Assembly (NCBI GenBank): GCA_965213995.1
Contig: OZ243929.1
Location: 899,324-963,323 of the forward strand
Origin: Gammaproteobacteria bacterium
GTDB lineage: Bacteria > Pseudomonadota > Gammaproteobacteria > Steroidobacterales > Foliamicaceae
Reading direction: 5' to 3'
DNA length: 64,000 nt
Part shown: positions 5,455 to 48,693 of the stretch, in pieces
How the letters are laid out: each line of letters opens with the position of its first letter
Position numbering within the stretch: position 1 is the stretch's first letter
The notes under the pieces: model-generated
What the model was told of the DNA's origin: nothing
The model's input: the letters and a program-made list of their open reading frames with translations, nothing else
Database searches by the model: none
Translations under genes and position numbers: made by a program

Positions 5455-10065
<4,611 letters not shown>

Positions 10066-34406: not shown

Positions 34407-34483
34407 CGGGGTATGGCGCAGTCTGGTAGCGCGTCTGCTTTGGGAGCAGAAGGTCAACGGTTCGAATCCGTTTACCCCGACCA
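34407..34483 (+). tRNA. tRNA-Pro (anticodon TGG)
   Basis: Manual cloverleaf: acceptor CGGGGTA/TACCCCG, D arm GCGC..GCGC, anticodon stem TCTGC/GCAGA with loop TTTGGGA, T arm AACGG-TTCGAAT-CCGTT, encoded ACCA. Confidence 0.9.
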
Positions 34484-34525
34484 CTGCTTCATAAAAGCCG
34501 CCGCTTTCCCGCTTAACCAGTCGAT

Positions 34526-34602
34526 GCGCCTGTAGCTCAACGGGATAGAGCATCGGCCTTCTAAGCCGGTGGTTGCAGGTTCGAGTCCTGCCAGGCGCGC
34601 CA
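34526..34602 (+). tRNA. tRNA-Arg (anticodon TCT)
   Basis: Acceptor GCGCCTG/CAGGCGC, D arm GCTC..GAGC, anticodon loop CTTCTAA, T arm GCAGG-TTCGAGT-CCTGC, encoded GCCA. Confidence 0.9.
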
Positions 34603-34654
34603 TCGGCATCGGCGCAGGCGGTCGGCGAGCCGGGCACAGCGCATAACAAACCGT

Positions 34655-34731
34655 GGTGGGCGTAGCTCAGTTGGTAGAGCCCCAGATTGTGGATCTGGTC
34701 GTCGTGGGTTCGAGTCCCATCGTCCACCCCA
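34655..34731 (+). tRNA. tRNA-His (anticodon GTG) with G-1
   Basis: Extra 5' G, acceptor GTGGGCG/CGTCCAC, anticodon loop TTGTGGA, T arm GTGGG-TTCGAGT-CCCAT, encoded CCCA. Confidence 0.9.
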
Positions 34732-34826
34732 CCCTCCCCCGCATCGAAGGCACCCCCTCCTTGCGGCCCAAAGCTATGGCAATATGGCACCCTCACCGGC
34801 GTGGCGCTCAACGCCACGCCCACACC

Positions 34827-34900
34827 GGGCCGTTAGCTCAACTAGGTAGAGCAGTGGACTCTTAATCCATTGGTTGCGGGTTCGATTCCCTCACGGCCCA
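34827..34900 (+). tRNA. tRNA-Lys (anticodon CTT), no encoded CCA, T-stem C:U mismatch
   Basis: Acceptor GGGCCGT/ACGGCCC, anticodon stem GTGGA/TCCAT with loop CTCTTAA. T arm GCGGG-TTCGATT-CCCTC (CCCGC expected). The discriminator A is followed by CTC, not CCA. Confidence 0.8.
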
Positions 34901-35034
34901 CTCACTTTCTGTAGCCCGTGGTCCTGCTGGAAAAACTAACGCCAAGAAGGACAAGTGATCATTAACGTCGCCATGCTGCACACCGCCTATTGACCTGTGG
35001 ACGCAAGTATTCGGTCTGTGGCTGGTTCGCTCCG

Positions 35035-35487
35035 TTATCGGGCATCGCCCAAGAATGCGCCAATAAGCTGCTTTGCGTAATGAGAAGCGGATCGGCGAAT
35101 TAGCCAACGGCTTGCGAATAGGATCAAAAAGTAAATTGCCGTTAAGGCGAGAAAGACCCAACCCATGGTCGTATCGACGTGCCAGATAAGACCAGCAGCG
35201 CATACAACGGCAGCTATGATGCTTCCTCCCGCCAAGTTTCGAAAGAAGCCGTACTCCCAATTTCTCTGCAACAATAGCGGCGATCCTCCGGCTGCCGCCC
35301 GAATGCGAGCCACTATGTCGCGGACTTGACGACGTGCCGCGATCTCGTCCCTTTCGCACAATTCGGGTGATGGCAGCTTCATGTTGAATTCCGTCTTTAC
35401 TTTTTCCGCAATTGCAACTTCGCATAGTTCGATCTGCCTGCTTGCACTCGCCATCATTTCCCAGTAGGGTTTACAGATTATATCCAT
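35035..35487 (-). CDS. small membrane protein with two C-terminal TM helices
   Basis: ORF 35035..35667 trimmed to ATG 35487 (MDIICKPYWEMM...) so that it does not overlap the divergent XRE gene; Met at 35457 is an alternative. TM segments GGSIIAAVVCAAGLIW and GWVFLALTAIYFLILFA. No recognised domain. Confidence 0.5.
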   Translation of the reverse strand: MDIICKPYWEMMASASRQIELCEVAIAEKVKTEFNMKLPSPELCERDEIAARRQVRDIVARIRAAAGGSPLLLQRNWEYGFFRNLAGGSIIAAVVCAAGLIWHVDTTMGWVFLALTAIYFLILFASRWLIRRSASHYAKQLIGAFLGDAR

Positions 35488-35497
35488 ATTGGATATA
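35479..35497. promoter_or_regulatory. perfect palindrome TATATCCA-TAT-TGGATATA in the divergent promoter region (putative XRE operator)
   Basis: 8-bp arms with a 3-nt spacer, read directly. Lies in the 35-bp gap between the 2TM gene and the XRE-ImmA gene. Confidence 0.45.
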
Positions 35498-35522
35498 TGT
35501 GTAAACTTAGGAGGAGCGAAGG

Positions 35523-36593
35523 ATGTTGGCACAACGACTGCACCGGGCACGGCAGGCGAGTGGCTTTTCGCTGCGGGCGCTGGCGGAGAAAGTTGGGGTT
35601 TCGGCAATGATGATTTCGAAGTACGAACGCGCTCAGTCCGTACCGTCCTCGGAGGTTCTGCTCTCATTGGCTAAAGCGCTCGGCGTTCGTACCGAGTACT
35701 TTTTCCGCACGTCTACAGTCAACCTTGAACGCATTGAACACCGTAATCGGAATGTTTGGAAATTGCCGAAAAGCGCGGAGAAAAAGGTACTCGCCGATGT
35801 AAGTGATCAGCTTGAGCGCTGGTTAGTACTCGACGATGTAATTCCTGCACCTTGGTCGACCCCATTCTCGTTGCCCATGGATATTCCTGAATCAGTGGAT
35901 AACTTGAATACGATCGAATCGATAGCTTCGCTAGTGCGAAATCACTGGGATCTCGGCCTGAATCCCATACCAGATCTTATTGATTCGTTGGAATCGCGCG
36001 GACTCAAGGTGTTCACGACAAAATTTGACGATCCACGATTCGAGGGAATGAGTGCGATGGCCGATGAACATTACATCATCGTTGTCAGCGGCCATTGGTC
36101 CGGTGATCGCCAACGATTTACCTTGGCTCATGAACTCGGCCATATCGTTTTAGACGATCGCCTTACGCAGGAAATTGACAAAGAAGACGCTGCAAATCGT
36201 TTTGCGGGCGCCTTCTTGGCGCCGGAAGAAAAGGTTATGGAAACCTTGGGCGCAAAACGTCGGGCTTTGGAATTCGCCGAACTGTATCTGTTGAAACACG
36301 AATTTGGATTGAGTATGGCCGGGTGGAGTTATCGAGCACTCAATCTGAACATCGTCACAAAAGCATCCCACAAGGCGTTTTGGACTGACTTTGCTGCCAA
36401 AGGGTGGAATGTAGAGGAACCTGGTCAACCATATCCTTCAGAATCGCCTCGATTGTTTCAGCAAACTGTCTATCGCGCACTCAGCGAGGAATTGATTGGT
36501 GAATCCAAGGCTGCGGAACTGCTATCCATAACTGCAAATGAACTCGCCGCTCGACGGCGGATGGAGATCGTTAATGGCGATTCTGGTCGGTGA
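35523..36593 (+). CDS. XRE-family HTH fused to ImmA/IrrE zinc metallopeptidase
   Basis: AGGAGG RBS, ATG start. N-terminal HTH (FSLRALAEKVGVSAMMISKYERAQSVPS) and HEXXH motif in FTLAHELGHIVL (COG2856-type). Confidence 0.85.
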   Translation: MLAQRLHRARQASGFSLRALAEKVGVSAMMISKYERAQSVPSSEVLLSLAKALGVRTEYFFRTSTVNLERIEHRNRNVWKLPKSAEKKVLADVSDQLERWLVLDDVIPAPWSTPFSLPMDIPESVDNLNTIESIASLVRNHWDLGLNPIPDLIDSLESRGLKVFTTKFDDPRFEGMSAMADEHYIIVVSGHWSGDRQRFTLAHELGHIVLDDRLTQEIDKEDAANRFAGAFLAPEEKVMETLGAKRRALEFAELYLLKHEFGLSMAGWSYRALNLNIVTKASHKAFWTDFAAKGWNVEEPGQPYPSESPRLFQQTVYRALSEELIGESKAAELLSITANELAARRRMEIVNGDSGR

Positions 36594-36741
36594 TGCAAAT
36601 ATCTTTATTGACGTCACTGTTTCAAATCTCTCTGAGGCAATGTTCCGTCTTGAAGACACCATCGCCACACCGGATGTTTTGTATCAAGATGAGCTTCTGC
36701 AACACCACCCGGAATTACCAGGCTTAGGGTTGCAAATTAAT
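36574..36741 (+). pseudogene. PIN-like nuclease gene truncated by an IS end
   Basis: MAILVGDANIFIDVTVSNLSEAMFRLEDTIATPDVLYQDEL resembles the N-terminal strand-Asp-helix of PIN-like (DUF3368/DUF4411-type) partners of XRE-ImmA genes. The reading frame runs into the IS inverted repeat at 36742. Confidence 0.5.
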
Positions 36742-37080
36742 TGTGCGGGTTCAGGACATGTGGGACTGGCGGGGTTCAGTTGTCCTTTGCTTGCGAAAGT
36801 ATTCCATCGGGGTCATCAAGTCCAGCGCGCAGTGGGACCGGACATGGTTGTGGAAGCGCTGGTATTCGGCCAATGCGGGCGCGGCGTACTTGGCGGTCTT
36901 TCTCCTCGGCAGAGGTTCCAGAACTCGGTTGTGGAGCTGTCGCTGGCGCGCTCGACGATGCCATTGATCTCGGGGCATTTGGGCGGCAGGACGGCCAGCG
37001 GGAGGCCGAGCGCCTGGCAGGCGCACTTTCGTCCAGTATCTAGAAGCCGTAATCCCCTACTACTGCGACAGAGTAGGCCA
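36742..37080 (-). mobile_element. IS remnant: right inverted repeat plus frameshifted 3' third of a DDE (rve) transposase
   Basis: IR TGTGCGGGTTCAGGACATGTGGGACTGGCGGGGTTCAG at 36742-36779. Minus-strand fragments read LLDTGRKCACQALGLPLAVLPPKCPEINGIVER... and, after a frameshift, YQRFHNHVRSHCALDLMTPMEYFRKQ. These correspond to the DNG..F, P.TNGKVER and YN..RPH.AL...TP motifs of IS3/IS481-type integrase cores. Confidence 0.65.
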
Positions 37081-37296
37081 GCAACTGCGGCGCTAGACCT
37101 CACCTGCTCCCCTAAAGAAAGAACGAAACGAGGGCCTAGCTGAGAGTGCAAATTAGAAAATCCAGTCAAAGACTGCGCCAAGTTTCATCTCGGATCGGAT
37201 AAAACAACCCTCACGCCCGCGTAAGTTTCGCTTTGTTCCCTGTTATGGTTGCGCGGCGGTTAGCGACATCCCGAGGCAAGCGACCACTCACGGACA

Positions 37297-38313
37297 ATGA
37301 GCGAAACAATAGCAGTGCGCGTCGAACCGGGAGAAACGCTCTCGGAGATTGCCATCCGGCACAGCGTCACCGTCGAGCAATTGCAGGAATGGAATCGGAT
37401 CGAAGAAGCGGACTATGTGCAGGCGGGCCAGAGAATCGTCGTCCATAAGGCGGCGGTTGCTCCAGGCTGGAACGAAGCGGCCGCCCCTTGGGATGCATTG
37501 CTGGGAGGAGCGCTCGTTGTAGCGGCACTGTTATTCCTGTTCCGCCGCAAACGCCAAACTCCGACTTCGTCGCCTGATACCGGAGTCCGCCCACCGAAAA
37601 AAGCACCACATCGGCCCGAACCGAAATCCGCTGCGGCATTGCGGAAACCCGCGCCGCCAGCAAACGCCGGCGAGCAACGGGTCCGATCAGTGTTGGCGAG
37701 GCGTTATCGGGACTGGCCGCTGCTTAATGACGTGCTGCTTCCGTCCGGGGGAGGGACGGCACAGATCGATCACATCCTCATCTCGCCCGCCGGCGTGTTC
37801 GTAATCGAGACCAAGGACATGGGCGGTTGGATATTCGCAAGTCCCGGGCAGCAACGGTGGACGCAAACATTGCCGGCGGGCCGTTGGTCCCGCATGATGG
37901 GCATCAAGTCGAGGCGGTTCCCTTTCTACAATCCGCTGCGGCAGAATGAAGGGCACGCGAAGGCCTTGGTCAAACTCGGCATCGTTAATCCTAGGGAGAT
38001 TCGGCCTGTCGCCGTATTCGTGGGCGAGGCCGAGATGAAAACGGAGGAGAAGTTCGCAGGATTCGAGGAGCATGAAGAGAAGGCAAAGCGGTTCCGTAGC
38101 TGGCGAATGCGAGGCGTTGTCTGCATGAGCCTGCGGGAGTTGCGGCGCTACATCGCCTTCTCCGTTCGTGCGCCATCAGGACCAAGCCTGACGCGCGAGA
38201 GGATGGAAGCGATCCGGTCAAAGATAGCAAAAGCTGCCCTGCCCTTGACGGCGGAAACTCACGCCAGACATGTCGAGTTCGCCCGGTCTGCTGAACGAGC
38301 ATCGTGGCAATGA
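37297..38313 (+). CDS. LysM - transmembrane - NERD domain fusion protein
   Basis: LysM: VRVEPGETLSEIAIRHSVTVEQLQEWNRIEEADYVQAGQRIVV. TM: ALLGGALVVAALLFLF followed by RRKRQ. NERD: GEQRVRSVLARRYRDWPLLNDVLLP..TAQIDHILISPAGVFVIETKDMGGWIF. Confidence 0.75.
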   Translation: MSETIAVRVEPGETLSEIAIRHSVTVEQLQEWNRIEEADYVQAGQRIVVHKAAVAPGWNEAAAPWDALLGGALVVAALLFLFRRKRQTPTSSPDTGVRPPKKAPHRPEPKSAAALRKPAPPANAGEQRVRSVLARRYRDWPLLNDVLLPSGGGTAQIDHILISPAGVFVIETKDMGGWIFASPGQQRWTQTLPAGRWSRMMGIKSRRFPFYNPLRQNEGHAKALVKLGIVNPREIRPVAVFVGEAEMKTEEKFAGFEEHEEKAKRFRSWRMRGVVCMSLRELRRYIAFSVRAPSGPSLTRERMEAIRSKIAKAALPLTAETHARHVEFARSAERASWQ

Positions 38314-38495
38314 ACCGCAATATCGCATGTTTGGGCTGGGGGCCTCTCATCTGGGATCCCCCGAGATCACGCACAAGTCAGCCGAAATCGGTCCCGTCAA
38401 GAATGCTCTTTAGGTGGTCGCGCCACGCGGCTTTGCCGTCTTCATCGGAAACTTCCTGCCACAGATGGTTCAGTATCCCTCTGGCGCGCTCCCGG

Positions 38496-39125
38496 TCAGG
38501 CGAAGCCATTGCTGCCGGAAGCCGGATCGAAATTCATCCACAATGATTCCCGCCTGATGCTCTTGGAGGAGTTGCAGATTTTCTCCGGCGCATCCACTCG
38601 GCGCCAATCGCCGAACAGCTCGTCGTAAAGATCGCATCGGTATCCTGAAAGCACCGCCCGACCCTTCACGCTTTGCAGCGCAGCAGCCATGTCGCGGTGG
38701 TCCTGGTCGGTCATTTCATGCCCGTAAGCACTCGAATCCCCTCGGCTGTTATGAACATAAGGAGGATCCAAGTAGAAAAGCGTTTTCGGCGTGTCGTAGC
38801 GTTGGACAACTTCCAAGGCGGGAGCGTTCTCGATCTGCACTCGCTGCAATCTTTGCGCGATTTCCGGCAGCCCTTCAACCGCTCCTAGCCAACGGGAAAC
38901 AGCGCCAGCCATGCCGGCTCTGGAAGTCAGGACGCAGTGAGCCCAACGCCCTTCGCTGCTCGTTTGCGCGAGCCCCGTGCGGGTTTGCCGCGCCCGAACG
39001 TAGAACCGGCGGGCACGCTCAAGAGATGACAGGTTCTCCGATGAGCCGCACGCTTTGACGAGTTCCGCTCTTGAGAACGGCGTCAGCCCGATGCCACGAA
39101 TAAGATCGTCGGGCTGGTCGCGCAA
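38496..39125 (-). pseudogene. D12-class (Dam-like) N6-adenine DNA methyltransferase lacking its N-terminal SAM-binding region
   Basis: Catalytic FYLDPPY motif and a Dam-like C-terminal half. The ORF opens right after an in-frame stop (39135-39137) and begins at a TTG. The usual N-terminal 60-90 residues (KWAGGK...FxGxG) are missing. It abuts the Fic gene stop. Confidence 0.65.
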
Positions 39126-39140
39126 AACGGCAATTCAGGA

Positions 39141-40481
39141 TTAGCCCAGCTTCCGCAGTCGCTCTTCGGTATTTTCCGCCGGACGGAAGATAAATGAGCG
39201 ACCGCGTTTGGTCATTTTCAGCAAACCGAGGTCAGCGAGCTTAAGCAGATCGGTTCGAGCCGTTTGATAGGTTACGTTGTGTGAAGTCCGGTGGCTGCGG
39301 ATCGTATATAGCTGATCGGGCTGCTTTCGCGCGGAAATCAATAGCGCCATCTGTCGGTGGTTAAGAATGGTTGTCAGCGCCGATCCGGCAAGAAGGCGCT
39401 GAACCTCGGAAATTTCTTTTGATTTTCGCGCCAGGTACTTGTGGAGCCGCTCAATCGCGCCAAGAATGACGCGAAGGTTGTAGTCAATGAAATAGGTGGC
39501 GTCATTGTCATCGGTTTCCGAAAAAATATACGACCTCGCGTACTGCGCTGGCGCTTTGCGAATAATGGTCGAGATTGAAAGGCACTCCGCCATCCAGTAC
39601 CCGGCGCGCGCCATGGCCCAGTAGAAAAGAGCGCGAGCGGTCCGCCCGTTGCCGTCAACAAACGGGTGCTCGTAGCCGATCATGAAGTGCAGGAGCACGG
39701 CCTTAATCACAGGATGAATGAACGAGGCGTCGTCCGTATGATTGGCAAAACGGAAAAGGTTATTCAGACGTTCTTCGAGATGGGCGGCATTGGGCGGAAT
39801 ATGCAGCACCTCGTTGTCCCGGCTGTCAATAACAAGCACCTCATCCTCGGCTCGCCTGAACCGGCCCGCAATGCCTGCATCGTTCGTCGTGCCCTCGACG
39901 AGGATGCTCTGCAGCTCCAGCAGCAAGGACATGGACAGATTCTCCCCGCCGAGTTCTCGAAGAAACTCCATGGCGCGGTAATTGTTGGCAATCATCCTTT
40001 CGCTTTTGGTCTGCGGTTCGCGCCCGGTTCGCAGCATCTCCTTGGCGACGCGGCGGGTTGTGGCAGCGCCCTCTAGTTGACTTGAGGTAATCGCTTCTTC
40101 GATCAGCGAGCTCACTAGGTAGCGATTCCGCGATTGCGGATTCACAACGTCAACCGGCAATTCGATACGACCGCTGGCATCGCGATCGATCTGGTGAAGC
40201 ATCCGGTTCAGATACCCTGAGTCGCTGAACGAAAATCGGCATCCGTTCTTGTCAGCAAGCGGAAGCTCGTGTCTTATCGAAGCCCTTGCGAACTTTATTG
40301 CCAGCCACCATTCTTCATTGGATATCCCCTCAGGTGGCTGCATGTGCTTCAGTTTTGACCAATGCGCATATCGGTCATTCGGGATATTCCCCACTCCGGA
40401 TGAGACCAGATTCAGGATTTTCCTTGCCTGCTCATGGGAATCCAAGCCGCTCAGGGAAGGCAGCGGAGAAGGCAGCTTCAT
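39141..40481 (-). CDS. Fic-family protein (AMPylase type) with autoinhibitory helix and C-terminal winged-helix
   Basis: Fic motif HPFVDGNGRTARAL and inhibitory motif SSQLEG. Start placed at ATG 40481; the track start at 40520 is TTG. Confidence 0.88.
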   Translation of the reverse strand: MKLPSPLPSLSGLDSHEQARKILNLVSSGVGNIPNDRYAHWSKLKHMQPPEGISNEEWWLAIKFARASIRHELPLADKNGCRFSFSDSGYLNRMLHQIDRDASGRIELPVDVVNPQSRNRYLVSSLIEEAITSSQLEGAATTRRVAKEMLRTGREPQTKSERMIANNYRAMEFLRELGGENLSMSLLLELQSILVEGTTNDAGIAGRFRRAEDEVLVIDSRDNEVLHIPPNAAHLEERLNNLFRFANHTDDASFIHPVIKAVLLHFMIGYEHPFVDGNGRTARALFYWAMARAGYWMAECLSISTIIRKAPAQYARSYIFSETDDNDATYFIDYNLRVILGAIERLHKYLARKSKEISEVQRLLAGSALTTILNHRQMALLISARKQPDQLYTIRSHRTSHNVTYQTARTDLLKLADLGLLKMTKRGRSFIFRPAENTEERLRKLG

Positions 40482-40525
40482 TGAGAATAAACCTAGACTG
40501 GAAGGCAAGCCAAATATCAATTTTC

Positions 40526-40598
40526 TACTAATTCATATCAAATTAGTAACTCGTGGCGCCCAATGTAAATAAAATACTAATTAATGTCAAATTAGTAT
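40526..40598. promoter_or_regulatory. two operator-like palindromes upstream of Fic gene 1
   Basis: TACTAATT-CATATCA-AATTAGTA (40526-40548) and ATACTAATT-AATGTCA-AATTAGTAT (40574-40598). Both have the same half-site and a 7-nt spacer, in an AT-rich region. Confidence 0.5.
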
Positions 40599-40624
40599 TT
40601 TGATTCAGGCTAGCGCGCTCAGAT

Positions 40625-40663
40625 CAACCCGATCCCAGTCCCGCATGTGTCTGAACCCGCACA
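40625..40663 (+). mobile_element. solo IS terminal inverted repeat (IRL-type)
   Basis: ...CCCAGTCCCGCATGTGTCTGAACCCGCACA. Its last 20 nt are identical to 17101-17120. It is in inverted orientation relative to the IS end at 36742. Confidence 0.55.
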
Positions 40664-40831
40664 TGACTCCACCGGCCGCCAACAATCATGTGATAGTATG
40701 CACACATGATTGCTATCACAAGAGGCGTTGAACATGCTGGCCTTAGGAACTAGCACGGCTTGCCGGAATCGGCGGCTGGGTCGGCCCGTGAAACGCCAAA
40801 CGATAGCAAGACACCACTACTTGGAGGAGTC

Positions 40832-41491
40832 ATGTATATTAAATCCCCCCCCCCCCCTTCAAAAAAACTAGCGCTACTTGCAGCAACCGCACTGCTATCC
40901 GCCACCCAGCTAGCATTAGCAGCACCTGGAGTATCTCTGGGCACAAAGCAAAGCAACATGGGCGGAAGTGAGCTCACCCTTTCATTGACCTGCGGTACGA
41001 AAGGATATCTCGCCACAGGGGTTGGAGAGGACCATGCGACCTATCTGGGGCAGCGACAGCGTAGTGACGGCTCCAACACGACTCCGTTGGAGTCCGGGCT
41101 CGTCAATCTTGCGTCCACGTACTTCTACGTCCGAGGGGTAGGTATCGGAAGAGCATCGGATGACGGTAATTTCTCGCCCCTTCCAGAAAATCATCCCGGG
41201 CGTGCCTGGGGCGCAAAGAGATGGGGAGATTTATGGGGTGCCGTCATGCAGCCTCGTTACGAGGTTGACATTGAGTTGACCGCGACTCCACAGCCGGACC
41301 CTCCGGTGTATTTCGTAACTAACAACACTAGCGGTATTCCAGTCGAGAGCAAGACTGTGATCGTTCAGCGCAGGTATGACACCCCATACGCAGAGCAAAA
41401 CGTGAGCTTGGTGCGTTACTGCGATCTCAATTCCAAAGAAACGATCAGTGTCACCATCAATGGAAGGATCACAGGCAAAAGGCCATTGTGA
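40832..41491 (+). CDS. secreted hypothetical protein with a C13 tract in its signal-peptide codons
   Basis: GGAGGA 4 nt upstream of ATG 40832. MYIKSPPPPSKKLALLAATALLSATQLALA|APG looks like a Sec signal peptide. The mature part has no recognised domain. Confidence 0.6.
   Translation: MYIKSPPPPSKKLALLAATALLSATQLALAAPGVSLGTKQSNMGGSELTLSLTCGTKGYLATGVGEDHATYLGQRQRSDGSNTTPLESGLVNLASTYFYVRGVGIGRASDDGNFSPLPENHPGRAWGAKRWGDLWGAVMQPRYEVDIELTATPQPDPPVYFVTNNTSGIPVESKTVIVQRRYDTPYAEQNVSLVRYCDLNSKETISVTINGRITGKRPL
40845..40857 (+). repeat. homopolymeric C13 tract followed by TTC and A7
   Basis: Counted directly: 6 C at 40845-40850 plus 7 C at 40851-40857. A7 at 40861-40867. Confidence 0.95.
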
Positions 41492-41749
41492 TCCTTGAGA
41501 CGACCGACGGAAGCATGGTGGAGTCATGATCCGTTGCCCTCCTCACCATCCCTGCACTCGCGACGGCGGAGCTATGCGACGACCACTGGTACGACAACCT
41601 CCATCGAAAAATCGAACCCGATAACTAACTCTACGCGGGGATTACCGGAGCAAGGCCTTGGGCCTGTACTCCGACACCATCATGCGCCCGGCTGCGGAAA
41701 TCGAAAAGCATCTGGCGCGGCGGAAGGCGGCGCAGGAAGCGGAAAGCCG

Positions 41750-42679
41750 TTAGGCGCGCTGATCCGACCAGGCGGCCACGATTTCGGCGGCCGGGGCCGA
41801 CCAGATGCCGGCCTGCTCCGAAATATGCTTCAAAGCCGATTCCAAGGCGGCGATGCGATGCGGCTGGCCCATGAGCCAGGGATGGATGGACAGGGCCAGC
41901 AGCCGCCCGTGCCCGGTGGCCTCGGCCTCCGCCAAAAGGTAATCGCAGGCATCCTTCACTTGCTCGGCGTACTCCCATTCCGAGTGCAGATTGCTCTGGA
42001 TAATGAACTGGTCGTCGAGTTCCAGCGATAGAGGCAGCGCAACCAACTCGCCGTGCCGGATGGCGAACGGATAGGGCATATCGTCGTTGATCCAGTCGCC
42101 CATATAGCGCAGTCCGGCCTCGGCGAGCAGATCCGGCGTGTTGTGGCTTTGCGACCGCGCCGGGCTTAGCCAGCCCGTAACGGGTTGATCCACGGCCGCG
42201 CGCAGGGCGCTGAGCGAACGGTCGATCAACTCGCGCTCGTCTTCAATAGCCAGCTCGCCGTGATGCAGGGTGTCCATGTGCCAGGAACTCGCCAGAATCT
42301 CGTTGCCGCGCCGGTTCAGGCGCTCTAGCAACTGCGGGCAACGCTCGGCGATGGCCGCGTTCACGGAAAAAGTAGGCGTGAAGCCCGCATGGTCCAGCGC
42401 TTCGAGGCAGCGGAACAGGCCCACCCGGTTGCCGTAATCGCGCAGCGTGTAGTGGCGCAGGTCCGGGTACGGGGTGCTCATGCCGCCCGGCGGGGGAAAC
42501 GGCTTGCCGCGCTGGTTCAGCGGGAAGAACTGCACCGCCAAGTTGATCCAAAGCGCCAGCCGGGCGCCGTTGGGCCATGCGACCGGAGCGCGGCGCGACA
42601 GCATCGACCACTCGTAGCGGTTGTGGTCCATGCCGTAGCGGCGGCGCTCGTATTTCAGGTAGGCCGGGTCAAGCGCCAT
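41750..42679 (-). CDS. polysaccharide deacetylase-family hydrolase (PuuE/allantoinase-like), paralog 1
   Basis: ORF 41750..42757 trimmed to Met MALDPAYLKYERRRYGMDHNRY. Motifs RDYGNRVG and WHMD... are typical of the divergent NodB-fold family. Confidence 0.75.
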   Translation of the reverse strand: MALDPAYLKYERRRYGMDHNRYEWSMLSRRAPVAWPNGARLALWINLAVQFFPLNQRGKPFPPPGGMSTPYPDLRHYTLRDYGNRVGLFRCLEALDHAGFTPTFSVNAAIAERCPQLLERLNRRGNEILASSWHMDTLHHGELAIEDERELIDRSLSALRAAVDQPVTGWLSPARSQSHNTPDLLAEAGLRYMGDWINDDMPYPFAIRHGELVALPLSLELDDQFIIQSNLHSEWEYAEQVKDACDYLLAEAEATGHGRLLALSIHPWLMGQPHRIAALESALKHISEQAGIWSAPAAEIVAAWSDQRA

Positions 42680-44432: not shown

Positions 44433-45524
44433 TCAGGGGCCCTCGGACAGGAGCGCCAGCAGCGGCGGGTTGATGTAAAGGTTTTCGCGGCCCGCCTTCA
44501 TCTTCTCCAGAATGGCCTCGTCCGCCAAAGTGTTCAGATAGACGGCGGCCGTCTGGCGCTGTCCTATGCCCGCCCTGACCACATCGTTCACCCGGCAGTA
44601 GGGATTCACGAAGATCAGTTCCACCAGTTCCCGGGAGTAGATTTTCGGCAACTTCCACCGGATTGCGGAGGTTGTCTCGTCGAGAAGCCTGCGGATTGCG
44701 CGGATTTTCTCCGTGGTCCATTCAGCTGTCGTCCTGACGGCTTCCAGCATGAAAAGGATCCATGCCTCCCAATCCTGTCCGGTCGTCACCGCGAGCAGGT
44801 GCCGATAGTAGAGCGCCTTGTTCCTGATGATGTATCGGCTGAGATAGAGAACAGGAATATCAAGCAGATTCTTGTCCACAAGAAAAAGCAGGTTCAACAC
44901 CCGCCCGGTTCGACCATTGCCGTCCGCAAACGGGTGGATCGCCTCGAACTGATAATGCATGACCGCGAGCCGGATCAAGGGATCGATCTCTTCGGCCCCG
45001 TGGATATAGCGTTCCCAATTGGCCAGTTTCGTCCGAATCAAGTCCTCTCCCGCAGGCGGCGTGTAAATCAACTTTTGGGTCGCGTCATTGATCAGGGCCG
45101 TTCCAAGGACTTTGCGAATATCGAGATCGATGCCCTTGATGATTCTGCACACCTCAACGGCCATGGCGGTCGCAGCCGGCCGGTTATTCAGCATCTCGAA
45201 GCCCCTGTGGAGGGCGGTGCGGTAGCGCAGGGCCTCCTTAGTGGCGGGATCCGCCCGGCCTGTCGCATCGTTGGCATGGCGGAACAGCCGGTCAGCCGTC
45301 GTGACGATGTTTTCGATCTCGGAACTCGCTTGGGCTTCAAGCAGCGGGATCGAGTTGATCAGCACGGACTGGTTCGGAATGAGCTTCCCGGAAGCCCGCA
45401 GTTCCGCCAGCGCCGCGCGTGCCGCGATGCAACTGCGGAGAATCGTCTTTGTCTCGGTTTCCGCGGCGGGCGGCAGGTCCGGCAATTCGTTGTATGGACG
45501 CGCAGGGTCGAATGACTGGGGCAT
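44433..45524 (-). CDS. Fic-family protein with Fic_N domain
   Basis: ORF 44433..45596 trimmed to ATG 45524 (MPQSFDPARPYNELPDLPP). Inhibitory motif SSEIEN and Fic motif HPFADGNGRTGRVL. Confidence 0.9.
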   Translation of the reverse strand: MPQSFDPARPYNELPDLPPAAETETKTILRSCIAARAALAELRASGKLIPNQSVLINSIPLLEAQASSEIENIVTTADRLFRHANDATGRADPATKEALRYRTALHRGFEMLNNRPAATAMAVEVCRIIKGIDLDIRKVLGTALINDATQKLIYTPPAGEDLIRTKLANWERYIHGAEEIDPLIRLAVMHYQFEAIHPFADGNGRTGRVLNLLFLVDKNLLDIPVLYLSRYIIRNKALYYRHLLAVTTGQDWEAWILFMLEAVRTTAEWTTEKIRAIRRLLDETTSAIRWKLPKIYSRELVELIFVNPYCRVNDVVRAGIGQRQTAAVYLNTLADEAILEKMKAGRENLYINPPLLALLSEGP

Positions 45525-45562
45525 GTTGTCCTGTATCCCGCTGATGCGGATGGGTCCGCGGA

Positions 45563-45623
45563 ACATGTCGATTTTATCGACATGTCGCTGAAACATGTCG
45601 ATAAAATTGAATTATATCGACAT
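45563..45623. promoter_or_regulatory. two operator-like palindromes upstream of Fic gene 2
   Basis: ACATGTCGAT-TTT-ATCGACATGT (45563-45585, perfect 10-bp arms) and ATGTCGATA-N11-TATCGACAT (45595-45623). Confidence 0.5.
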
Positions 45624-46018: not shown

Positions 46019-46657
46019 TTAGGAGAAACTGAAATCTTCGAAGCGCTGTTTCAAAGCTTGTTTGTTAGGCTTTCGCGCCCTGTTTTTCGGCTCACGTAGA
46101 GGTCGGCCGTGATACTTCCCGTAGCCGCTATTGCGGAGTTCCGCTTTGACCACAACCTTGAAGCTGCCCGGATCGATAGTTATTAGGCCGCAGTCGAACA
46201 GCGTGTGAATATCGGCGCGGAGCAGGAGCCCGTTGCTTACGCAGCTCGTGCCTTTATCTGCGTACGGGTGAATATGCGCCGCCTCCAATACATCCTGAAC
46301 CGCGCATTTAGTGATCGCACACTTGTGTTCATAGGCTTCAAGCAATCCTTGCCGAAATGCACTTTGTCCGCGGCGTTGCAGGATCAATGTATTGATCCGT
46401 TCCCATGCCCCCTCGATCGTTTCCAGGTTGCCTGCGTCATCGTCCGCAGCGTCCGGTGAAAGCGGTGACAGACCGCCGAGTGGGCCAAGCACCTCCTGCA
46501 GTTTCTTGCGATTCTCCTCCTTCGGACGGCGAGTCCCACGCTCCCAATGAGAAATCATTCCCGTAGACACGCCAATTTTCTCTGCGAGCTTGGCTTGCGT
46601 AAGACCAATTTCGAGACGACGGCGCTGCATGCTTTTGCCAAGACTGTTATCACTCAT
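46019..46657 (-). CDS. XRE-type HTH fused to HNH_2 endonuclease domain
   Basis: AAGGAG RBS, ATG start. HTH: LTQAKLAEKIGVSTGMISHWERGTRRP. HNH: CAITKCAVQDVLEAAHIHPYADKGTSCVSNGLLLRADIHTLFDCGLITID. Confidence 0.8.
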   Translation of the reverse strand: MSDNSLGKSMQRRRLEIGLTQAKLAEKIGVSTGMISHWERGTRRPKEENRKKLQEVLGPLGGLSPLSPDAADDDAGNLETIEGAWERINTLILQRRGQSAFRQGLLEAYEHKCAITKCAVQDVLEAAHIHPYADKGTSCVSNGLLLRADIHTLFDCGLITIDPGSFKVVVKAELRNSGYGKYHGRPLREPKNRARKPNKQALKQRFEDFSFS

Positions 46658-46739
46658 TGCTGATTTCTCCTTGGATGGCAGATTGAGGTTATCTTGCCCG
46701 TTTGTTGATTGTTCTTAATTGGCGCTACCCCGCCTTCTG

Positions 46740-47549
46740 CTAGCGTGACAGAGCCTTGCTGATTTGCTGGCAGAATTTCTTTCTTTCAGGGGCTTCTGTG
46801 TAGAGCACAGCCTGCTGCAGGTTTGAATGGCTCGTGCCTTCAACCTCGGAGAGCGCGAACCTCTTGCCGCCCGGATTTTCTGGATCGTCCTCGTAAGAGT
46901 AGGACATGAAGATGATGTTGACGGTGCTGTCCCGCACGTCCCGCGTCCGCATGAATTCCGCCTTGGCCCGCACGTATTCGTACAAGACATCCTGCATCAC
47001 CGCGACAATCTTCGTGCCCCAATGATGATGAAAATATCCCTTTCGTATGAGCTGCGTGATGTAGCGCTTATAGACATTGTCGAAGTTAAGCCCGTAGCTT
47101 TTCTTCGTCTCCATCTGCCGCACTTCGCGCATGGCCGAGTAGGCATCCCCCACCGTTCCAGTGATATCAATGGCTTGCAGTTCAACCGATAAGAACTGGC
47201 CTATGCCGCCCTCTTCATCGACATCGGCCACAACGAAATCCACGTTGCCAAAGCCCGTCATCTTTACTTCGCGGGCCACCTTGGGATTCACAGGCGGGTT
47301 TCCGGGCCAGCAATGCTTGACAACATCGCTCAAGAAATCGACTTGATTGAAGCGTTTGGGACACACGCATACCTGCCTGCCCAATTTCCAAATTGAGCAG
47401 ACCGGATAAGGCTCCTTGAGGGAAGTGCTGCGCTTGACGCACTGCGTTCCCAGGAACGGGCACGTGAACGAATGGGCGGACGGATCGAGTCCTGGCTCTG
47501 CGGGCCGACCCAAGACCTCGCAAATGTATTCTCTCGGATCAGACGGCAA
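46740..47549 (-). CDS. type II restriction endonuclease, NotI-like fold
   Basis: The N-terminal Cys cluster FTCPFLGTQCVKRS..PYPVCSIW..VCVCPKRF resembles the NotI Fe-Cys4 motif (CPFL..C..VC..VCP.R). Later blocks LSVELQAIDITG and GLNFDNVYKRYITQL parallel NotI. Overlaps the Dcm gene by 11 nt. The start is TTG and uncertain. Family assignment is from memory, not from a search. Confidence 0.6.
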   Translation of the reverse strand: MPSDPREYICEVLGRPAEPGLDPSAHSFTCPFLGTQCVKRSTSLKEPYPVCSIWKLGRQVCVCPKRFNQVDFLSDVVKHCWPGNPPVNPKVAREVKMTGFGNVDFVVADVDEEGGIGQFLSVELQAIDITGTVGDAYSAMREVRQMETKKSYGLNFDNVYKRYITQLIRKGYFHHHWGTKIVAVMQDVLYEYVRAKAEFMRTRDVRDSTVNIIFMSYSYEDDPENPGGKRFALSEVEGTSHSNLQQAVLYTEAPERKKFCQQISKALSR

Positions 47550-48693
47550 TGGCTAGTTCCAAGTCGGCATCGCCTTGGCGTTCCGGTTCCGCAAGCTGCA
47601 TCGCGCGAAGCATTGCTTGGGCAACGCGCTTTGCGAGAACCGGCGGCACCGCGTTGCCCACTTGAACAAACTGTTCGGTTCTAGGCCCCTGAAATTGAAA
47701 CCGGTCCGGAAAGGATTGCAGCCGTGCCGCTTCGCGCACGGTGAGCACGCGATCCTGTTCGGGGTGGATATACGCGCCCCAATGGATATCGCATTTTGTA
47801 AGCACGGTGCTTGACAGGCCATCGTTGCGGAGCCGGCCGTAACGCTTGGTATGGTCGCAACGGCGCGCCTTTTTCATTCCGGCCGGCAATAGGTCGTGCG
47901 GAATATCGCGCCAGCTGCCTCCCGGCCCAATATGCTTCATCCGCTGCAAATTGATCGGGGCAAGGCGGGGCGCGGCGTGGTTATGGACGACGGTTGAATC
48001 GCCCCGCATCATTGCCTGAAAGCCCGAACGGGCCGGGGCGCGGTAGCTCGCAGGGCCAGCATCTTCGCCGTTCTTGAGTTTCGGCAAATCGCTGATGGCC
48101 TCCCCCACAGTCACAAAGGGCAGAAGGCCGCGCCCATGTGTCGGCTGCGGCCACAACACAGGCAAGCCCAGCCGGTTGCCAACGAAAAATACCCGGCGCC
48201 GCTCTTGCGGCACGCCGTGCTCTTCCGCCCTTAACGTCCGCATATCCACAACGTAGCCCAACTCGGAGAGGCCCGCCAAAATTTTCTTGACCGCCTTGCC
48301 TTTTCCGGCGGAAGTAATCCCGGTGACATTCTCCAGCACCACCCATTTCGGGGCCAATCCCCTAACAATCCGCAGATATTCCTCGAATAGCCTGCTGCGC
48401 TTGTCGTGAAGGCCGCGCTGATGGTTATAAACGCTGAACGCTTGGCAAGGCGGCCCGCCGATCAGGCAGTCCAGCCCCCCTTTTTCCAGACCGGTTGCTT
48501 CAAGGAGATGGTCCGCGCTGATTTCCTCGATGGGTCCCGGCAGGAACCCGGCGGCATCATGCGCCACGCTGAATGTGGCGCCGGCATGCTCGTCGAAATC
48601 GTTGCCGGCCAGAATCGTGAAGCCCGCCTGCTGAAATCCCTCGGAAAGACCTCCTGCTCCGCAGAACAGGTCGATGGCTGTTATTTCCTGCAT
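47539..48693 (-). CDS. dcm: DNA (cytosine-5)-methyltransferase
   Basis: Motif I DLFCGAGGLSEGF, IV GGPPCQAFS, VI VVLENV, IX RLQSFPDRFQF, X VGNAVPP. Confidence 0.92.
   Translation of the reverse strand: MQEITAIDLFCGAGGLSEGFQQAGFTILAGNDFDEHAGATFSVAHDAAGFLPGPIEEISADHLLEATGLEKGGLDCLIGGPPCQAFSVYNHQRGLHDKRSRLFEEYLRIVRGLAPKWVVLENVTGITSAGKGKAVKKILAGLSELGYVVDMRTLRAEEHGVPQERRRVFFVGNRLGLPVLWPQPTHGRGLLPFVTVGEAISDLPKLKNGEDAGPASYRAPARSGFQAMMRGDSTVVHNHAAPRLAPINLQRMKHIGPGGSWRDIPHDLLPAGMKKARRCDHTKRYGRLRNDGLSSTVLTKCDIHWGAYIHPEQDRVLTVREAARLQSFPDRFQFQGPRTEQFVQVGNAVPPVLAKRVAQAMLRAMQLAEPERQGDADLELAIAV

Follow-up and report, generated by a model that had tools for sequence, protein, structure and literature searches.

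For nucleases built on the NERD (nuclease-related domain) fold, a part in phage defence is only beginning to be demonstrated, and no role is known for most NERD proteins that are anchored in membranes. HEC-02B, whose NERD domain carries a (D/E/Q)xK signature, has been shown experimentally to defend against phages, earlier suggestions for NERD proteins having come from genomic context (bioRxiv 10.1101/2024.01.29.577857). ZwsA, the Zowangsin protein, is a stand-alone NERD RNA endonuclease directed against RNA phages, in which the NERD catalytic residues, including the Lys, are essential (bioRxiv 10.64898/2026.04.06.716636). At the membrane, SmdA of Staphylococcus aureus combines an N-terminal transmembrane helix, a cytoplasmic NERD-like domain and a conserved C-terminus in which a His is important for function; it localizes to the septum, acts in cell division and affects peptidoglycan synthesis, is a core protein conserved within the Staphylococcaceae and scored as essential in transposon-mutagenesis studies, and is described by its authors as lacking several conserved NERD residues (PMC9040797). 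Here we describe a gene whose product joins a LysM domain, a single transmembrane helix and a complete NERD domain in one polypeptide. It lies in a 64,000-nucleotide stretch of contig OZ243929.1 from a gammaproteobacterium of the family Foliamicaceae; this whole stretch is referred to as the window, and all coordinates without a locus label are counted from its first letter.

The LysM-NERD gene occupies 37297..38313 on the plus strand, from an ATG start through 338 codons and a stop codon. An earlier note on this DNA had placed an open reading frame (ORF) at exactly these positions and divided its product into LysM, helix and NERD parts, an arrangement that the ORF list and Pfam both confirm; the motifs ALLGGALVVAALLFLF, RRKRQ and QIDHILISPAGVFVIETKD are all found in the translation. 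The LysM domain (Pfam PF01476; residues 8-49, 37318..37443), predicted to be periplasmic, scores 41.7 bits against a cutoff of 20.9 (E 1.1e-10). The NERD domain (PF08378; residues 123-242, 37663..38022), with a PD-(D/E)XK fold and a predicted cytoplasmic location, scores 92.3 bits against a cutoff of 22.1 (E 3.5e-26), with positions 3-111 of the 111-position profile covered. The Pfam scan of the 338-residue protein found no domains beyond these two.

Between the two domains lie a short acidic spacer (residues 50-65, 37444..37491), the transmembrane helix (residues 66-82, 37492..37542), the positively charged cluster RRKRQ (residues 83-87, 37543..37557), which by its charge bias marks the cytoplasmic face, and a Pro/Ala/Lys-rich disordered tether (residues 88-122, 37558..37662) with 10 Pro and 7 Lys/Arg in 35 residues. 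A Kyte-Doolittle scan of the protein found one hydrophobic segment (windows starting at 60-68, core 66-82), directly followed by RRKRQ, and no hydrophobic signal-like region at the N-terminus. The single helix, its basic flank and the Pro/Lys-rich linker of the earlier note thus stand, on hydropathy and composition. Within the NERD domain, the putative catalytic motif runs from D158, in the sequence QIDH, through E171-T-K173 (37768..37815), and the domain is followed by a conserved helical C-terminal extension (residues 243-338, 38023..38310) with WRMRG at 269-273 and the histidines H322 and H325. All of these features are on the plus strand. A promoter and terminator scan found no promoter-like site and only three weak terminator-like sites on the minus strand, a count not above that in shuffled sequence.

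To place the protein in a family, we used a word-indexed protein search over clusters at 90% identity, which returned 250 clusters. The best 120 of these were essentially all full-length, at 48-94% identity, and 119 of the 120 carried both Pfam domains; full-length homologs from all searches span 48-95%. Alignment, charge and invariance figures given here refer to 77 members of the family. Invariant positions in the LysM core include G12, L15, A19, L29, N33 and Q45; in the NERD domain D158, H159, E171, T172 and K173 are invariant, together with a run of core residues, as are R270, R272, Y285 and H325 in the C-terminal extension. The pattern D158 ... E171-x-K173 fits the (D/E/Q)xK signature cited for NERD domains and also corresponds to the essential NERD residues of ZwsA.

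The pairwise ratio of nonsynonymous to synonymous substitution rates (dN/dS) over the whole gene is 0.23-0.49 against close relatives. Taken by module, LysM has 0.16-0.45, NERD 0.22-0.32 and the C-terminal part 0.16-0.49, and the segment comprising the transmembrane helix and linker is close to neutral at 0.46-0.96. These values indicate that the folded modules are all under purifying selection, while the tether is nearly free to vary. Across the family the tether is 10-103 residues long and 20% Pro, and the spacer between LysM and the helix measures 5-31 residues, with a median of 16. The LysM-NERD gene is therefore a real, conserved family and not a chance fusion. Decay of the window copy after the loss of its downstream neighbor had been suspected from its identity to homologous locus L001, which is 97% in nucleotides versus 94% in protein, and was rejected on the dN/dS of 0.23-0.49.

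A full-length AlphaFold2 model built with the 77-sequence alignment gives the LysM domain a predicted local distance difference test score (pLDDT) of about 85 and a beta-alpha-alpha-beta arrangement (strands 3-8 and 46-51, helices 15-21 and 26-33). The model places a helix at 66-82 and leaves the linker disordered, with pLDDT <50; from residue 121 onward most 10-residue blocks reach 85-98, and the C-terminal extension scores 74-96. Modeled alone, residues 117-338 have a pLDDT of 86 and a predicted template modeling score (pTM) of 0.84. Foldseek comparison of the LysM model with solved LysM domains gives target-normalized TM-scores of up to 0.74-0.85, and the family profile matches the solved LysM domains of LytE, Ecp6, AtlA and MltD, with chitin-binding LysM structures among the matches.

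For the cytoplasmic part, Foldseek matches in the PDB are exclusively PD-(D/E)XK nucleases (AF1548, VC1899, Can2/Cdn1, NucS, Bax1, the R2 endonuclease, McrC and LmuA), all of them weak (E 3e-3 to 0.1). Its best match in BFVD is a phage protein annotated 'Nuclease-related domain protein' (E 7.8e-7, TM-score 0.53). By sequence, the NERD part matched no solved structure, and the C-terminal helical extension gave no informative fold match with Foldseek. As modeled, the NERD part adopts the restriction-endonuclease-like alpha/beta fold of the PD-(D/E)XK superfamily.

The orientation of the protein in the membrane can be read from the charges that flank the helix. Over the 77 homologs, the 15 residues on the C-terminal side of the helix contain a mean of 5.1 Lys/Arg, versus 0.17 in the 15 residues on the N-terminal side, where there are instead about 2.2 Asp/Glu; the N-terminal part as a whole has a mean net charge of -6.8, and exactly one hydrophobic segment is present in 67 of the 77. 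By the positive-inside rule, this bias puts LysM outside and NERD inside. At about 65 residues, the acidic, low-charge N-terminal tail is of a size that can be translocated without a signal peptide, and LysM proteins that stay in the cytoplasm exist as well. The extracytoplasmic location of LysM and its binding to peptidoglycan are accordingly put forward here as predictions.

Two relatives add to this picture. An exhaustive search of clusters at 50% identity returned P0257, which has a classical signal peptide, an SH3b domain (SH3_3 match at 24.8 bits, slightly below the Pfam cutoff of 27), a transmembrane helix followed by RRSR, and the same NERD module. In P0246, a signal peptide is followed by an ectodomain of about 190 residues of unknown type, a transmembrane helix, NERD and a Cys-rich, zinc-ribbon-like C-terminal tail. 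With these two architectures, the order ectodomain, helix, NERD recurs with different ectodomains, which suggests a modular superfamily previously undescribed as such. The topology with LysM out and NERD in, proposed in the earlier note, is thus supported by the charge bias together with the signal peptide-SH3b-transmembrane-NERD relative.

We propose, tentatively and at somewhat less than an even chance, that the protein is a stand-alone, wall-docked, membrane-tethered nuclease directed against mobile elements. The acidic N-terminal LysM would be translocated to the periplasm, where it could bind the glycan strands of peptidoglycan, and the flexible Pro-rich tether would hold the NERD nuclease, together with its helical extension, close to the membrane on the cytoplasmic side. 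The nuclease would thereby be kept where foreign nucleic acid enters the cell. LysM would serve to position or immobilize the protein, and need not carry a signal; it may be only an anchor. The invariant D...ExK residues and the defence role of the NERD proteins HEC-02B and ZwsA support such a nuclease. Also in its favor are the PD-(D/E)XK fold, the charge bias, purifying selection on each folded module, the lack of an obligate partner, the mobility of the gene and its island setting in the window. Its activity, its substrate, its part in defence and its hold on peptidoglycan are all putative.

A signal passing from LysM to NERD is hypothetical but plausible, and leads to a different explanation: an envelope-damage sensor acting by abortive infection, in which LysM reports a change in peptidoglycan, made for example by phage tail lysozymes, and activates NERD across the helix, perhaps by oligomerization, so that phage or host nucleic acid is destroyed. 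The placement of LysM and NERD on opposite sides of the membrane suits this explanation, as do the interchangeable ectodomains of the relatives (LysM, SH3b and the 190-residue domain), a pattern typical of sensor modules. No immunity partner accompanies the gene, which implies that its activity is gated somehow, and the gene lies in a defence island. There is also general precedent in Zorya and Kiwa, envelope-associated defence systems in which a component that contacts the membrane or peptidoglycan is coupled to action on nucleic acid. However, a tether that is disordered, varies between 10 and 103 residues and evolves near neutrality is a poor conduit for conformational signaling, and most members of the wider family lack an ectodomain, so the NERD module works without a periplasmic sensor. 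We regard the sensor as unlikely.

A broader form of this idea, which we consider improbable, takes the LysM-, SH3b- and other ectodomain-bearing NERD proteins together as one-polypeptide transmembrane immune receptors, in which wall damage or muropeptides at the injection site would trigger clustering or activation of the tethered nuclease. If true, they would amount to a pared-down, one-gene equivalent of Zorya and other envelope-sensing systems, passed between the phyla of sponge microbiomes. A wall-contact domain that controlled the nuclease would make this the simplest known envelope-to-cytoplasm immune device. The LysM variant in any case offers a handle on why such nucleases are tethered to membranes at all: to be placed where DNA enters, to be gated by the condition of the wall, or to be connected with wall synthesis.

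To see the company that the gene keeps, we examined the window and the homologous loci with called genes and Pfam annotation, 13 distinct contexts altogether. Clear defence or toxin-antitoxin genes are present in 7 of the 13. Examples are a SacI-type restriction-modification system with Fic; TIR, ResIII, an N6/N4 methyltransferase and HipA; EcoRII, Vsr, a C5 methyltransferase and Schlafen-AlbA; AbiEii; HigBA; and a D12 methyltransferase with PDC-S11 and Fic. A further 4 of the 13 contain mobile-element genes (transposases, recombinases, reverse transcriptases, ParA). The remaining 2 have little or none of either kind, the only such trace in one of them being a transposase fragment next to core genes. 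The link between homologs and defence islands, raised as a check in the earlier note, holds in that most contexts contain restriction-modification, toxin-antitoxin, abortive infection, Fic, TIR, integrase or transposase genes; by a crude count, matches to PADLOC families show no local excess. The association of the family with defence islands is thus a qualitative one, not demonstrated statistically.

An all-against-all comparison of neighboring genes in 44 loci identified three clade-specific neighbors on the same strand as the NERD gene. The first, located 61 nucleotides upstream in 7 loci, encodes a 385-residue protein with a NucS-like PD-(D/E)XK region at the N-terminus and DUF4268 at the C-terminus, which over its full length is the PADLOC single-gene candidate PDC-S11 (E 6e-171). 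It is the fixed upstream neighbor throughout the clade that shares 72-80% identity with the window protein (L003-L008, L082, L091; about 8780-9940), and is absent from the window. The second, 75-88 nucleotides upstream in 11 loci (L012, L015, L017, L020, L027, L031-L034, L088 and L089), encodes a protein of about 140 residues that has a clear signal peptide and matches nothing in Pfam or PADLOC; in L012 an insertion sequence (IS) lies between the two genes. Its distant homologs have no NERD gene in their vicinity and lie either between dnaK and dnaJ or after an RND pump.

The third neighbor encodes a protein of about 184 residues, and its gene overlaps the NERD stop codon in several of the six to seven loci concerned; it is intact in L003, L004, L006, L007, L009 and L082 and internally deleted in L005. 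In the window it is reduced to a 19-codon remnant (MAMNRNIACLGWGPLIWDP; 38304..38360, plus strand; 79% identity by tblastn over the first 19 residues of the intact 186-residue protein), which likewise overlaps the NERD stop codon, and the same remnant is present in L001 and L002. This protein family has more than 2,000 hits, including some in Mesorhizobium, and matches neither Pfam nor PADLOC models; its N-terminus may contain a ChaC/GGCT-type motif. Each of the three neighbors also occurs away from NERD genes, and a dedicated or obligate partner gene was rejected for this reason. Neither a recurrent ATPase neighbor nor a conserved adjacent antitoxin gene was found in the 44 loci; the window gene adjoins no ATPase gene and has none of the three clade-specific neighbors. 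Since purifying selection persists after the downstream neighbor has been reduced to 19 codons, the LysM-NERD protein probably works alone.

Several observations weigh against a tethered anti-mobile-element nuclease. In one of the 13 contexts, L096, the flanking genes are metabolic only. PADLOC families number 251 among 150 ORFs near the gene (within 3 kb) versus 314 among 147 distal ORFs (6-10 kb), a crude measure that counts families only and in which group II intron reverse transcriptases, matching dozens of reverse transcriptase models, inflate the distal set. Context is in any case weak evidence, because sponge symbionts are generally rich in restriction-modification and mobile elements (PMC8163846). 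Among bacterial NERD proteins with a membrane anchor, only SmdA has been studied to date, and it acts in cell division. Were the tethered nuclease constitutively active, its self-restraint would also have to be explained, given that no immunity partner accompanies it. At a median spacer of 16 residues, LysM may fall short of the mature sacculus, which clouds a simple anchoring role; it may, speculatively, contact nascent strands or soluble fragments near the membrane instead. No PADLOC model matches the LysM-NERD protein, and its proposed function is deduced from sequence and context.

To get an evolutionary perspective on the family, we compared its members with the NERD proteins that lack an ectodomain. 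The exhaustive search of 50%-identity clusters gave 24 hits at E<=1e-30 and 1,795 at E<=1e-10, many of the latter NERD-only or with multiple LysM domains, and full-length LysM-NERD proteins account for only a handful of cluster representatives. The closest relatives without LysM are found in Acinetobacter, Limnohabitans, Zobellella, Chlorobium and many others, and one homologous locus, L037, has a copy without LysM at 49% identity. Judged by these sequence relationships, the LysM-NERD proteins are a narrow, LysM-bearing offshoot of a broad and widespread family of transmembrane NERD proteins. The architecture is less exotic than the earlier note had made it, being a LysM-decorated version of that family.

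Among species-representative genomes, all 39 of the 39 loci at >=40% identity over most of the NERD part are in metagenome-assembled genomes (MAGs). Their labels cover several gammaproteobacterial orders, Alphaproteobacteria (Rhodospirillales, Rhodobacterales), Nitrospirales, Nitrospinaceae, Poribacteria and Vicinamibacteraceae. SB0677_bin_25 is listed among the sponge-associated Entoporibacteria, and the CAR and RHO bin names would fit a demosponge MAG study covering Carteriospongia and Rhopaloeides. That study reports that restriction-modification and CRISPR genes are enriched in the symbionts and that lateral transfer occurs among them (PMC8163846), which agrees with the distribution seen here and also means a higher background of such genes. 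Synonymous divergence (dS) is only about 0.18 between copies labeled as different phyla, which points to recent transfer, with the proviso that short MAG contigs can be mis-binned. The family looks like a clean example of cross-phylum gene exchange in sponge microbiomes and could be a useful marker of gene flow.

This distribution raises the question of a host-interaction factor of sponge symbionts, in which LysM would bind N-acetylglucosamine polymers of the host or environment, such as chitin, and so aid persistence. In its favor, nearly all full-length homologs, from several phyla, belong to MAGs, of which many can be traced to sponge microbiomes, and LysM domains do also bind chitin, as in the solved chitin-binding structures among the matches. 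However, in a diderm cell a spacer of 5-31 residues keeps LysM too close to the inner membrane to reach host glycans, the conserved partner domain is predicted to be an intracellular nuclease, and the restriction to sponge MAGs may only reflect local gene exchange and database sampling. We consider this explanation far-fetched.

Copies of the gene also occur in varied surroundings. The identical protein P0050 occurs in four different contexts (L084-L087), two of them within the same sample, surrounded by transposase genes of the DDE, IS1595, IS21 and IS3/rve types and by group II intron reverse transcriptases. Chromosome OZ242260.1 carries two copies (L031 and L033) about 56 kb apart. Decayed copies occur as well, with an in-frame stop in L022 (Nitrospirales) and N- or C-terminal fragments in L036, L039 and L065; such decay fits an accessory gene, for which turnover is to be expected. 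No full-length LysM-NERD gene was found on catalogued plasmids or phages, where only relatives of the NERD domain occur, on 400 plasmids and in a few phages; one of these relatives, on a conjugative Vibrio plasmid, adjoins a thermonuclease gene and an integrase gene. The LysM-NERD gene is an accessory one, spread horizontally among bacteria that are known chiefly through sponge-associated MAGs.

Such mobility could mean that the gene serves its mobile elements, whether as an addiction-type toxin, as a nuclease for entry exclusion or against competitors, or as a DNA-processing factor at the membrane during transfer. Integrase, transposase, group II intron reverse transcriptase and ParA genes frequently flank it, it is multi-copy within genomes with identical copies in different contexts, and its NERD relatives reside on the plasmids just mentioned, the conjugative one included. 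On the other side, no full-length copy is on a catalogued plasmid or phage, no recognizable conserved element with fixed ends surrounds the gene, no antitoxin-like partner accompanies it, and a single chromosomal site has been kept across the window, L002 and L009, the proteins of which share 72-95% identity. Service to a mobile element is also unlikely in our estimation.

That chromosomal site is next to a tRNA Pro-Arg-His-Lys cluster (34407..34901, plus strand; ARAGORN), which borders an island. A block of roughly 13 kb after the tRNA cluster has a GC content of mostly 55-58%, versus about 65-66% in the flanks, and the island also holds a higher-GC block, with two polysaccharide deacetylase genes and an isochorismatase gene, that is common to L009. 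L002 and L009 carry the LysM-NERD gene at the same tRNA-adjacent site, and in L002 it starts about 350 bp after the cluster. The setting of the gene in the window is a tRNA-adjacent defence island, and the earlier note was correct in describing neighbors of the Fic, restriction-modification and toxin-antitoxin-like kinds: RmrA-like, D12 methyltransferase, two SoFic-like, NotI-like restriction endonuclease and C5 methyltransferase genes.

Upstream of the LysM-NERD gene, a Rosmerta-type gene (35523..36593, plus strand) encodes an RmrA-like protein with a helix-turn-helix (HTH) domain and an ImmA/IrrE peptidase domain (Pfam HTH_3 and Peptidase_M78; PADLOC RmrA, E 1.3e-55, full length). An ORF from 36538 overlaps it and is apparently cut off by a minus-strand IS remnant (36751-37026) that resembles an integrase core and is 78% identical to L036 14252-14535; the first 65 or so residues of this ORF (MAILVGDANIFIDV...) might represent a PIN/DUF4411-type partner. 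A 2.25-kb segment containing the RmrA-like gene and the IS remnant (34904-37156) is missing from the syntenic L002.

Downstream, on the minus strand, a truncated D12-class adenine methyltransferase gene (38496..39125) retains only positions 148-241 of the 253-position MethyltransfD12 profile; its full-length counterpart adjoins a SacI-type restriction endonuclease gene in L081. It is followed by a SoFic-like Fic-domain gene (39141..40520, minus strand; Pfam Fic; PADLOC SoFic, E 3.1e-40), 98% identical in nucleotides to the L001 Fic gene, which there adjoins the NERD gene. Over 37225-40665, identity to L001 is 96-98% for the NERD gene, the methyltransferase fragment and Fic, but L001 has them in another order, which indicates recent recombination or rearrangement in the island; the segment 38429-38794 matches two places in L001.

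Farther along are two adjacent ORFs of 243 and 178 amino acids (40760-41491 and 41495-42031, plus strand) with no Pfam or PADLOC match, and a second SoFic-like gene (44433-45596, minus strand; PADLOC SoFic, E 1e-114) with the full Fic_N, Fic and SoFic-like C-terminal architecture. Three minus-strand genes, for an HTH-HNH protein that may act as a controller or nuclease (46019-46657), a NotI-like restriction endonuclease (46740-47549) and a C5 cytosine methyltransferase (47539-48693), look like a type II restriction-modification cassette spanning 46019-48693.

A similar tRNA neighborhood is found in Acinetobacter. In A. vivianii and A. beijerinckii, a gene for a short transmembrane NERD protein (about 33-40% identity) is directly downstream of a tRNA Pro-Arg-His-Pro cluster (L068 9398-9813; L080 8628-9059). 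This could reflect either old synteny or a shared integration hot spot. As a hint of old synteny, it bears on a further explanation, an envelope or cell-division role like that of SmdA, in which LysM would localize the NERD protein to nascent or septal peptidoglycan and so connect the nucleoid with wall synthesis or division. Septal peptidoglycan is a common target of LysM domains, and a short spacer between LysM and the membrane would suit nascent glycan strands close by. SmdA itself, with its transmembrane helix, cytoplasmic NERD-like domain and conserved C-terminus, is septal and affects peptidoglycan synthesis (PMC9040797). However, the LysM-NERD gene differs from a core division factor in its patchy distribution, its mobility, its multiple copies and its occasional decay, belongs to a narrow family of a handful of 50%-identity clusters and lies in a low-GC island; it also keeps the full catalytic set, whereas SmdA is described as lacking several conserved NERD residues. 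We judge a division role quite improbable.

The earlier note recognized no described defence system in this architecture, and our searches agree. No family of PADLOC-DB 2.0.0 matches the LysM-NERD protein at E<=1, among the papers searched none combines 'NERD domain' with 'LysM' and none mentions Foliamicus, and public annotations of the homologs read only 'LysM peptidoglycan-binding domain-containing protein' or 'NERD domain-containing protein'.

Measured against known proteins, the nearest are the short transmembrane NERD proteins of about 200-270 amino acids found in Acinetobacter, Limnohabitans, Vibrio and Methylobacter plasmids, among others. They share with the LysM-NERD protein the membrane helix upstream of NERD, the NERD signature TTQIDHIL..VFVIETK..GW.FG...WTQ...F.NP..QN..H and the C-terminal helical extension, with matches that reach query residues 314-336 and 31-49% identity over the shared part. 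Unlike it, they have no LysM or other ectodomain, their N-terminus being the membrane helix, and they are far more widespread. SmdA, compared by its published description, is similar in its N-terminal helix and cytoplasmic NERD-like domain; it differs in that the LysM-NERD gene is accessory and mobile and its product keeps all of the catalytic residues.

HEC-02 likewise uses a NERD nuclease as a defence effector, but is a two-gene soluble system with an ABC ATPase as sensor, whereas the LysM-NERD gene has no conserved ATPase neighbor. ZwsA resembles the LysM-NERD protein as a stand-alone, single-protein NERD system, the role of the latter as an effector being our proposal. Unlike it, ZwsA has a VHS-DUF647-NERD-S4 architecture, with no LysM and no membrane anchor reported, and Pfam finds none of those other domains here. 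The NERD-kinases, both MAD6 of the methylation-associated defence system and those of the PglW type, have an N-terminal NERD domain, and NCBIfam NF047741 aligns with residues 117-224, but only at 30.1 bits against a cutoff of 460 and over positions 6-99 of a 612-position profile; the LysM-NERD protein has no kinase domain, is associated with no methylation system and differs in overall architecture. The likeness to Zorya and Kiwa is a functional analogy only, as these are multi-protein systems of unrelated folds (the MotAB-like ZorAB; KwaA and KwaB), whereas here there is one polypeptide, in which any coupling is hypothetical. Membrane-anchored NERD proteins and NERD nucleases of defence were thus already known, and what is new is the addition of a LysM domain, predicted to lie across the membrane.

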